Shown here piece after piece: positions 5,713 to 8,295 of a stretch of 64,000 nucleotides of DNA. Origin of the DNA: Escherichia phage 212; the sequence record PQ765507; one strand, given 5' to 3'. The notes below the pieces were generated by a model. The model made no database searches. It was not told the origin of the DNA and saw nothing but the letters and a program-made list of their open reading frames with translations. The translations under genes and the position numbers were made by a program. Each line of letters begins with the position of its first letter. Position 1 is the first letter of the stretch.

Positions 5713-5740
5713 AAAAGGGCCGCAAGGCCCTTATTCTTTT
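5711..5740. terminator. bidirectional terminator between convergent rnlB and gp24 paralog
   Basis: GGGCC-GCAA-GGCCC hairpin flanked by A-run on one side and T-rich run on the other. Confidence 0.6.
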
Positions 5741-7014
5741 TCCAGTGGTGGAAGTTTAACACCAAGATAAGAACTCAATTGGCTTTGGTTAGCCATCTTA
5801 TCCATATCAGCACCATCAATAATGCGAGCTTCTTTATCATCTTTCGCAACCGTATAAGGGTTCGCTGTCAATGCATAACGAGCTAATAGCGCAACAGTAG
5901 GCTGCAAGCTTTCAGGGTCAACAATAACCTTGAATTCCCCGACCGAGGTATCACCCTCATCATCAACTTCGCTAAGACCTTCCGTATAAGGCGCATAATA
6001 CAAAGATGCGACCGTCTGACCTTCACCCATATCAGCATTTACACCGACAATAACATAATCACATGGACTATTCATATCTGCATAAAGCGGCAAACCGTTC
6101 TTCAGAACGCCATAGGCTAATTCATCCTGGTCTTCCTTTTTCTCAACCCAACCAGAAGCTGCTAAAATAGCTGCACAACGGGAAGAAGCGACTGCATATG
6201 TGCCAGCAAACGAAGTCTGACGTTGAACTGCAGAGTTCATTTCACACATATAATAATACAGGGTTCGCGCACGGTCCTGAGCATTATCATATTTCGGGTC
6301 AGTTAGATTCAATACACCTTTTTCAGAAACACCTTGCACCTTGAAGCGAGAACTGACAGTAATAAGGGATTGCAGTACATCCTTATTAATTTCCTCTGCC
6401 ATTTGAATGCCGAGAATATTATCGATGAAGTCTGTTGCATCGAAACCGTTTGCTTCCAGGTCTTGAGCAAGCTCAACAGTTAAAGAAGTTTTCAGCTTTC
6501 TGGATTTAACTTCAGTCTGCCATTTATCAATACGAAAACCAGCTTCAGCAATTTCGGGATGACCTTTTTCAAATTTATCAGTAAAAGCTGCATCTGACAT
6601 CATTCTTATATGGCCAGCCGCAATGGCTTCAGAAATAACTTCGCTCAAATCAGTTTCGAGAGTCCCGGAGAATGGTGATGCTTCCAAAACTTTGAACACA
6701 ACACTTTCAAACTGGAACATATCACCGACTGCATAATCTTCGTCTTTGTTCGTAAATTCTGGGATATTCTTACGCTCGAACATACCAATCTGACCTGCAA
6801 ATGTTGCTCCGCCAAGATAAGTCATTTTATCATCTGGGTTCAGAACACGAACACCATACAACGCAGCAACAGGCTGGGTAGTTTTCTGTTCAGCCACGAG
6901 CGCTTTAAAAATTCGTTTATTCGTAGCCTGGGTATAAGAAAGCAAATTAGGACGGGCGACCTGGTTGGCCGCCGTTAATGTTGATTCGTGAATTAGTGCG
7001 TTAATCTTTTGCAT
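5731..7014 (-). CDS. second gp24-type capsid vertex protein (divergent paralog)
   Basis: 427 aa; shares conserved blocks with adjacent gp24 (QPVAALYGV, KTRKLKT.LTVELAQDLEANGF, NKDVLQSLITVS, ANPYTVAKDDKEARIID) but diverged elsewhere. Confidence 0.8.
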   Translation of the reverse strand: MQKINALIHESTLTAANQVARPNLLSYTQATNKRIFKALVAEQKTTQPVAALYGVRVLNPDDKMTYLGGATFAGQIGMFERKNIPEFTNKDEDYAVGDMFQFESVVFKVLEASPFSGTLETDLSEVISEAIAAGHIRMMSDAAFTDKFEKGHPEIAEAGFRIDKWQTEVKSRKLKTSLTVELAQDLEANGFDATDFIDNILGIQMAEEINKDVLQSLITVSSRFKVQGVSEKGVLNLTDPKYDNAQDRARTLYYYMCEMNSAVQRQTSFAGTYAVASSRCAAILAASGWVEKKEDQDELAYGVLKNGLPLYADMNSPCDYVIVGVNADMGEGQTVASLYYAPYTEGLSEVDDEGDTSVGEFKVIVDPESLQPTVALLARYALTANPYTVAKDDKEARIIDGADMDKMANQSQLSSYLGVKLPPLEKE

Positions 7015-8295
7015 TTACGCCTCATAAATGATTGGCGGAAGTTTAACACCGAGCAGATAAGACATATTGCTCTGACCGGCCATTAAATCCATATTGGTTG
7101 CATCGATAATGCGAGCTTCTTTATCGTCTTTAGCAACAGTGTACGGGTTAGCTGAAAGTGCATAACGAACCATCAAAGAGATAGCTGGTTGCAAACTATC
7201 GGGGTCCACAATGACCTTAAACGCGCCTACATGCTCTTCATCATCTAAGTCCAGGCCTTCGGTATAAGGAGCATAGAAGATTGAGCCTACGACTTCGTTT
7301 CCGCCGTAATTTTCTTTAACGCCAACGGTTACATAATCTAATGGACTGTTAACATCACAGAATACAGGGAGGCCATTAATCAAATAACCGTACGCTGTTT
7401 CAGGAAGCCATTGTTCATCTTCTGGTTTATGTTTCAGCCAGCCAGAGCCAGCCAACATAGCAGCAACACGGCTAGAGGCAACAACAAAGGTACCGGAATA
7501 AGATGTAGTTTTCTGAATCTCGGAGTTCATTTCACAAACCAGTTCGTACAGTTTACGTGCGCCTTCTGGAGCTGCATCATATGTTAAATCGATGACGCCA
7601 TTGTCAGAAACACCAGTTACTTTATAACGCTTGGAAACGGTAATAAGAGACTGAAGAACATCTTTGTTAATTTCATCTGCCATAATAGTGGCAAGCAAGT
7701 CTTCCAGGAAAGCAGGAGCATTAAACCCATTTGCTTCCATATCCTGAGCAAGCTCAACAGTTAATGCAGTTTTCAATTTACGTGTTTTAACCGGAGCATT
7801 CCATTTGTTGACCTGGAATACAGCATTGCTAATTTCAACATCACCGGCCTCAAATTTCTCGGTGTGTGCAGCATCAGGAACCAGGCGAATAGTTAATGCA
7901 ACAAGACCTTCTTGCAGAACATCGGATAATACAGTTTCGGTAGTCGATGCAAACGGGTTATCAACCAGAGCTTTATAAACGGTATTCTGAAATTTAATGT
8001 ATCCGCCTTTAGCTACGGCCTGAGTTGGAGTTGTAAATTCCGGAATTGTTTCACGGTCTTTTGAACCAACTTCACCACCGTAAACGGCACCAGTCTGGAA
8101 ACTGAATTCATTATCAGGAGTAAGATATTTAACACCATACAGCGCCGCAACTGGCTGGCTTGTACGTTGTTCAGCGATAATATCGCGGTAAATCAATTTG
8201 GTTGTAGCGCGGGTCAAAGCAACAAGATTCGGGCGGCCCAAGGAGTTGCTGGTAGTGGTAGTTGACTCGCGCAGTAATTTGTTAATCTTTGCCAT
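7015..8295 (-). CDS. 24: gp24 capsid vertex protein
   Basis: 426 aa; N-terminus MAKINKLLRESTTT..GRPNLVALTRATTKLIY matches T4 gp24 from memory; HK97-fold paralog of gp23. Confidence 0.9.
   Translation of the reverse strand: MAKINKLLRESTTTTSNSLGRPNLVALTRATTKLIYRDIIAEQRTSQPVAALYGVKYLTPDNEFSFQTGAVYGGEVGSKDRETIPEFTTPTQAVAKGGYIKFQNTVYKALVDNPFASTTETVLSDVLQEGLVALTIRLVPDAAHTEKFEAGDVEISNAVFQVNKWNAPVKTRKLKTALTVELAQDMEANGFNAPAFLEDLLATIMADEINKDVLQSLITVSKRYKVTGVSDNGVIDLTYDAAPEGARKLYELVCEMNSEIQKTTSYSGTFVVASSRVAAMLAGSGWLKHKPEDEQWLPETAYGYLINGLPVFCDVNSPLDYVTVGVKENYGGNEVVGSIFYAPYTEGLDLDDEEHVGAFKVIVDPDSLQPAISLMVRYALSANPYTVAKDDKEARIIDATNMDLMAGQSNMSYLLGVKLPPIIYEA

Follow-up and report, generated by a model that had tools for sequence, protein, structure and literature searches.

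Two adjacent gp24-type capsid vertex genes in Escherichia phage 212 and related phages

A stretch of 64,000 nucleotides (nt) from Escherichia phage 212 (sequence record PQ765507), referred to here as the window, carries two adjacent genes, 24(1) and 24(2), whose products both belong to the family of gp24, the capsid vertex protein of phage T4. With a probability of roughly 0.7, we read both genes as encoding functional vertex subunits that would be co-produced, built into the prohead and then cleaved, 24(2) being a specialised partner that depends on the canonical gp24 encoded by 24(1). The gp24 gene pair as such is already known and has been annotated for years in JS98, VR7, S16 and more than 100 other phages; the comparisons reported below indicate that it is neither specific to this genome nor recent. 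The genes that make up the locus are as follows.

7015..8295, minus strand: gene 24(1), upstream capsid vertex paralogue, 426 amino acids (aa); called as an open reading frame (ORF); orthologue of VR7 24(1), JS98 24a and "capsid vertex protein I"
5731..7014, minus strand: gene 24(2), downstream capsid vertex paralogue, 427 aa; called as an ORF; orthologue of VR7 24(2), JS98 24b and "capsid vertex protein II"
8729..10288, minus strand: gene 23, major capsid protein, 519 aa, a more distant paralogue of both gp24 copies
4705..5712: rnlB, convergent with 24(2)

The two proteins align over their full length with about 56-57% identity and 75% positives (BLASTP, E = 2e-174), a similarity far beyond chance. 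Both match Pfam family PF07068 (Gp23; E ~1e-97) and PHROG 138, and NCBIfam holds no model for either of them. T4 gp24 (1yue) is the top solved-structure match for both copies over residues 1-424, scoring 646 bits for 24(1) and 496 bits for 24(2), with E-values of 1e-193 and 1e-148. In the same search, gp23 chains score only about 50 bits against either copy. The sizes of 426 and 427 aa also fit gp24 (about 427 aa), as neither protein has the 65-residue propeptide or the larger insertion of gp23. Taken together, these matches identify both copies as full-length homologues of T4 gp24, and the 56-69% identity to the crystal-structure sequence suggests an HK97-type fold with an insertion domain for both. 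The original prediction, which was made from the letters alone and described two adjacent genes of gp24 architecture, was thus accurate, coordinates included.

The original prediction also held that T4 has a single gp24, which is borne out by the one copy in the T4 record, and that the promoter-proximal gene is very close to T4 gp24. In a multiple alignment, 24(1) is 69% and 24(2) is 56% identical to T4 gp24. The promoter-proximal copy is therefore the nearer of the two, but "very close" overstates the relationship. Similarity to the window's own gp23 is far weaker, at 28-29% identity over the C-terminal ~270 residues for either copy (BLASTP). Much closer relatives are found elsewhere. For instance, 24(1) is 94% identical to VR7 24(1) and 90% to JS98 24a, and 24(2) is 98% identical to VR7 24(2), 95% to JS98 24b and 84% to the downstream copy of Melville.

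The pair occupies the genomic position typical of the gp24 family, that of late-transcribed genes located downstream of gene 23 and facing rnlB. The following signals were located in and around it.

8322..8329, minus strand: late promoter motif TATAAATA, T4-type, 26 nt before the 24(1) start codon; sequence match
8301..8308, minus strand: Shine-Dalgarno-like AAGGAAAG before 24(1), read from the letters and kept in related phages
7020..7023, minus strand: GAGG ribosome-binding site for 24(2), within the last codons (Tyr-Glu-Ala) of 24(1)
7012..7017, minus strand: TAAATG stop/start junction, where the 24(1) stop abuts the 24(2) start
5715..5732: GC-rich hairpin with T-runs on both strands, terminator-like and common to 24(2) and the convergent rnlB
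8693..8714, minus strand: terminator-like hairpin 3' of gene 23, parting the end of the gene 23 transcript from the 24(1)-24(2) unit

The motif at 8322-8329, which we take to be a late promoter from the known T4 late-promoter consensus, is the sole copy between gene 23 and the end of 24(2), and no separate promoter for 24(2) was found in that interval. It lies ahead of gp24 at an equal position in VR7, JS98, Melville, KpnBM7, Q7622, T4 and SP18. The tight junction with its embedded GAGG is kept in VR7, JS98, Melville and Q7622, is an ATGA overlap in Kpn BM7 and is also tight in other genera, where it consists of a 1-nt overlap, a 4-nt overlap or a 1-nt spacer. These signals delineate a two-gene late unit with one promoter, a stop/start junction and one terminator. 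The juxtaposition in TAAATG would imply translational coupling of 24(2) to 24(1), and a late unit coupled in this way suggests that both proteins are produced at a fixed ratio. The two gp24 genes resemble each other in codon adaptation relative to gp23 (0.47 and 0.43).

In the window, VR7 and JS98, the two genes are in the same frame and are separated by a single TAA, so that read-through would give an 854-aa fusion. Such a fusion is not a conserved feature, because the frame shifts at the junction in Gelderlandvirus, Marfavirus and Kanagawavirus, and the shared frame is probably incidental. The promoter motif itself is present at 19 places in the window, where chance alone would give 4.5. Most of these lie on the minus strand in the first 29 kilobases (kb), for example at 10429-10436, 11158-11165, 12110-12117 and 14104-14111, a bias that fits a late structural-gene region.

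The N-terminal decapeptide is MAKINELLRE in 24(1) and MQKINALIHE in 24(2). In spite of these differences, both sequences place an L/I-x-E motif immediately before Ser11 (LRE|S in 24(1), IHE|S in 24(2)), and every orthologue examined retains it. In solved capsids, mature T4 gp24 begins at the residue that aligns with position 11 of each copy. The kept motif, together with this starting point, supports processing of 24(2) by the prohead protease and would hence place the protein in the prohead. The original prediction had called the distal copy clearly diverged, including in its N-terminal propeptide region. This is correct for the decapeptide, but the cleavage motif is retained and, as described below, the copy does not evolve significantly faster when measured against outgroups.

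The remaining differences between the copies are unevenly distributed. Positions were scored as fixed when they were invariant in the downstream clade and held another invariant residue in the upstream clade and in single-copy Tevenvirinae proteins, and the count was also run conversely. Sixteen positions are fixed in the downstream clade against one in the upstream clade. In T4 numbering, the changes are L8I, V25L, A26S, L27Y, T32N, L34R, Y36F, K56R, Y57V, F66Y, T68G, P244Q, E245D, L288V, E335Q and F341Y, with concentrations at residues 25-36 and 56-68. At 25-36, the state of the downstream clade is the derived one, because the outgroups hold the upstream state there. The N-arm and the beginning of the E-loop region of HK97-type capsid proteins are built from N-terminal residues and contact other capsomers and the scaffold. 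Placed on this fold by alignment, the changes at 25-36 and 56-68 would fall in these two parts. A second distinctive region spans T4 residues 231-300. Conservation inside the downstream clade is 92% here, but identity to T4 is only 38%, and the alignment with T4 has an insertion of three residues and a deletion of four. The most variable part in both clades, residues 61-160, is presumably the surface insertion domain.

Changes at such sites could mean that contacts differ and that 24(2) has left the vertex, having become an assembly-only factor, a protein that decorates or cements other parts of the shell, or a decoy against a capsid-sensing host defence. Its invariable co-occurrence with a canonical gp24, described below, is also what would be seen for an accessory factor. 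We nevertheless regard a departure from the vertex as very unlikely. The 24(2) protein is colinear with gp24 over its full length with only small indels, and 153 alignment columns do not vary among the two clades and the single-copy Tevenvirinae proteins. It keeps the protease motif and the most conserved capsid-fold blocks (KSRKLKT..TVELAQDLEANGF, YYAPYTEGL and RYAL.ANPYTVAKD), as a subunit embedded in the lattice would need to. Searches of the open-access literature turned up no host defence known to sense gp24.

Both copies are under strong purifying selection, and 24(2) is at least as constrained as 24(1). The ratio of nonsynonymous to synonymous substitution rates (dN/dS) between the window and VR7 is 0.057 for 24(1), 0.033 for 24(2) and 0.068 for gp23. 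Between the window and JS98, the corresponding values are 0.045, 0.021 and 0.034. Within Gaprivervirus and Dhakavirus, the downstream copy has accumulated about half of the amino-acid change seen in the upstream copy. The notion that 24(2) is a pseudogene or a decaying gene was rejected on these grounds, as its dN/dS is 0.02-0.03 and orthologues align over at least 80% of its length in 113 of 113 phage records. Frameshifts or stops in the distal copy, which the original prediction named as grounds for refuting it, are not seen: neither gp24 ORF of the window has an internal stop, and full-length matches of both copies are present at the 16 IMG/VR loci inspected directly.

In neighbour-joining trees, upstream and downstream copies form two separate clades, the downstream one with a bootstrap of 99-99.5% and the upstream one with about 60-75%. 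The branching order is alike in both (Marfavirus, then Gelderlandvirus, Dhakavirus and Gaprivervirus), which indicates joint inheritance of the two genes. Between the paralogues, synonymous divergence (dS) has reached saturation, at about 2. A recent duplication or ongoing gene conversion was discarded: the two genes are 61% identical in DNA, have no near-identical stretch, reach at most 77% in 30-codon windows, and share the codon at only 48% of identical residues. Whether the downstream copy evolves faster was also considered, with five deeper outgroups (Winklervirus, Acinetobacter, Bragavirus, Krischvirus and Pseudotevenvirus). At 89 diagnostic columns, the numbers of sites at which the outgroup shares the upstream or the downstream state are 36/26, 35/24, 37/26, 24/30 and 22/26. 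These relative-rate counts are not significant, both lineages having moved away from the ancestral state about equally far, and 24(2) looks diverged mainly because T4 gp24 groups with the upstream lineage. The comparisons thus portray 24(2) as an old lineage, not a degraded copy.

The distribution of the pair was surveyed by tblastn with the downstream protein as the query. At E <= 1e-60, gp24-like genes are found at 1495 places in 1377 phage records, so that about 118 records hold two gp24 matches. The threshold of E <= 1e-180 is reached only by true downstream orthologues (at least 78% identity). These occur in 113 phage records, each aligned in one place over at least 80% of the query length, and belong to Gaprivervirus, Dhakavirus, Gelderlandvirus (S16, Melville and STML-198), Kanagawavirus (CIP9 and Q7622) and Marfavirus (Marfa, F48 and Kpn BM7). 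Kosakonia phage 305 and a Proteus-labelled phage also carry one. At 16 of 16 IMG/VR loci, a full-length upstream-type match lies directly before the downstream-type gene on the same strand, and all seven IMG/VR loci without a downstream-type gene have a single gp24. The downstream type was never seen alone in these phage records and IMG/VR loci, nor was a natural derivative of the pair that retains the upstream copy only.

The pair has been given several names in GenBank, namely 24(1)/24(2) in VR7, 24a/24b in JS98, capsid vertex protein I/II in VR5 and VR20, and gp108/gp109 in Salmonella phage S16. The JS98 abstract of Chibani-Chennoufi et al. (J Bacteriol 2004) reportedly mentions a "gene 24 duplication". 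Neither a discussion of the pair nor virion proteomics covering it was found in the open-access literature searched. In JS98, VR7, VR5/VR20 and S16, the same two genes have the same order, strand and junction as in the window and lie between gene 23 and the convergent rnlB. The window does not differ materially from the JS98/VR7-type pairs and adds a further member to them. Over a 5.4-kb region, DNA identity is 98% to Escherichia phage PSD2001, the nearest relative, and 91-95% to VR20, VR25, VR26 and VR7, which assigns the window to Gaprivervirus.

In some sister phages, the place of the pair is taken by a single gp24 gene of a third type. This allele, found in 19 records in all, is present in Gaprivervirus SP18, P479, DK-13 and RZ and in Dhakavirus MX01, AnYang, KIT01 and C6. 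Relative to the P479 allele, identity is 99.8% in SP18, DK-13 and RZ and about 92% in the Dhakavirus members. The third-type gp24 is 70% identical to 24(1) and 54% to 24(2). The genes used for comparison are located as follows.

MW269952.1, 122312-123589 (5310..6590 of its extracted locus), minus strand: P479 single gp24
3501..4781 of each extracted locus: SP18 and MX01 single gp24

The surroundings of the single gene are almost unchanged. In SP18/P479 and MX01/AnYang, it occupies the same locus, with the same flanks (gene 23, a 93-aa ORF and rnlB), the same promoter and a near-identical gp23, and differs from the pair in being one gene instead of two. Identity of gp23 to that of the window is 99.6% in P479, 99.2% in SP18 and 96.1% in MX01, the rnlB of P479 is near-identical to that of the window, and the 93-aa ORF is present in P479 as well. 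A natural one-gene/two-gene cassette polymorphism therefore exists in near-isogenic phages. DNA alignment of MX01 with JS98 reveals high identity until about 255 nt into gp24, then about 72%, and high identity again from the stop codon. The third-type allele is not a simple collapse or fusion of the pair, as its body belongs to a third lineage, with a DNA identity of about 72% to 24a and a protein identity of 54% to 24(2). In the GenBank record of P479, about 3.1 kb (MW269952.1, about 120886-124032; locus 3887..7033) are without annotated features; the stretch holds intact 24.2, rnlB, gp24 and the 93-aa ORF and is thus an annotation gap.

Single-gene phages bear directly on the possibility that 24(2) is a redundant, dispensable spare that adds nothing beyond the canonical gp24 and persists only because deletion is rare. 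P479 and SP18 relative to the window, and MX01 relative to JS98, are near-isogenic phages with a single gp24 beside an almost identical gp23, and T4 gp24 itself can be bypassed by mutations in gp23 (review PMC3012670). A spare gene seems improbable, in our view, for several reasons. The dN/dS of 24(2) is below that of the upstream copy and comparable to that of gp23, and the coupling signals are conserved. With synonymous sites saturated, and orthologues matched over at least 80% of the length of 24(2) spread over 113 records and at least five genera, a neutral spare would have decayed. Moreover, the single-gene phages hold the third gp24 lineage and not the upstream copy alone.

The reading that we prefer, in which both products are vertex subunits, may be outlined as follows. 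Both would be made late and in roughly fixed proportion, would enter the prohead shell, would be trimmed by the gp21 prohead protease, which would remove the first 10 residues, and would serve as subunits of the pentameric vertices. The 24(1) protein would be the canonical gp24, and the 24(2) protein an old specialised partner whose N-terminal arm and surface regions have been remodelled, working beside the canonical type but unable to replace it. It might, for example, fill a subset of the 11 non-portal vertices or mix into pentamers. A stricter version, in which both paralogues are in the virion and divide the 11 pentameric vertices between them (for instance, the apical vertex and the ten shoulder vertices) or form defined mixed pentamers, with 24(2) obligately dependent, is tentative and in our estimate rather unlikely.

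Several points weigh against the preferred reading. A third-type single gp24 beside a 99.6% identical gp23 means that either one protein or a pair can close the same gp23 hexamer lattice, and closure by one protein means that the structure can do without a second paralogue. In T4, a single protein occupies all 11 vertices, and vertex classes alone need not demand two. Virion incorporation, as well as cleavage and a division of labour between the copies, is something that we infer from sequence. Finally, an AlphaFold2 model built on a three-sequence alignment was discarded (predicted local distance difference test score 37), and the divergent positions were placed on the fold by alignment alone.

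The origin of the pair is a separate question, and its answer is compatible with any of these functions. Instead of an in-place tandem duplication, recombination of two diverged T4-like phages may have put a foreign, Jiaodavirus-related gp24 beside the resident gene, a scenario to which we give somewhat less than even odds. In its favour, 24(2) is 64% identical to the single gp24 of the Jiaodavirus KP1, compared with 57% to its neighbour 24(1), and the neighbour-joining tree joins the downstream clade and KP1 with 59-67% bootstrap. Between T4 residues 150 and 290, KP1 has partial indels and many diagnostic residues in common with the downstream clade, and the pair-bearing genera form no obvious exclusive group by gp23 identity. 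The affinity between KP1 and the downstream clade is, however, weakly supported and seen with distance methods only. KP1 is equally near the upstream clade overall (64%; 34 versus 34 diagnostic sites), no recombination scars remain, and an old duplication followed by losses gives the same pattern as an acquisition.

The KP1 gene (Klebsiella phage KP1, 3501..4781 of its extracted locus), equidistant from both clades at 64%, looks mosaic. Its N-terminal 40 residues are upstream-like (85% versus 54%), and residues 121-280 are nearer the downstream clade. Such a pattern might have come about when a pair collapsed by recombination long ago, or it might preserve ancestral states. That the Jiaodavirus gp24 is an upstream/downstream chimera was not adopted as a conclusion, since the pattern is suggestive but not demonstrable.

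Two neighbouring genes complete the description of the locus. A 93-aa ORF (8403..8684, plus strand; PHROG 6003, unknown function) lies on the opposite strand between genes 23 and 24(1) and is kept in VR7, JS98, SP18, P479 and MX01; T4 has the segD homing endonuclease at that place. A Hoc-like head decoration gene (3145..3993, plus strand) encodes 282 aa in the window and SP18 and 377 aa at the corresponding position in PSD2001 and P479. As the two lengths are split across one-gene and two-gene phages, Hoc length varies independently of the gp24 cassette.

In comparison with T4 gp24 (PDB 1yue, 5vf3, 7vs5 and 8gmo), the window copies are alike in family, length (427 aa in T4), promoter position, N-terminal cleavage motif and colinearity. 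The difference lies in number, T4 having one gp24, with segD between 23 and 24, and the window having two copies. The older duplication that separated gp24 from gp23 shows the same principle at a higher level, in that a paralogue of a shell protein became specialised for a subset of lattice positions. There, identity between the two proteins is about 28% and their roles are clearly distinct, one in hexamers and the other in pentamers, whereas the two gp24 copies of the window are 57% identical.

As a discovery, the gene pair matters little, since it is already present in public annotations. What is added here is that 24(2) is at least as constrained as 24(1), that it has derived changes in its N-terminal arm, and that 24(2) is never found alone, yet the pair can be swapped for a third-type gene. 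The one-gene and two-gene variants, the window and PSD2001 on one side and P479 and SP18 on the other, make up a ready-made test system for the function of 24(2). If the two proteins do occupy distinct positions, this would have a bearing on the engineering of T4-type heads. Should both sit in the capsid at such positions, the pair would be a clean case of the stepwise specialisation of lattice positions by gene duplication, and a division of the vertices between them, if true, would represent a second round of capsid-protein specialisation after that which led from gp23 to gp24.

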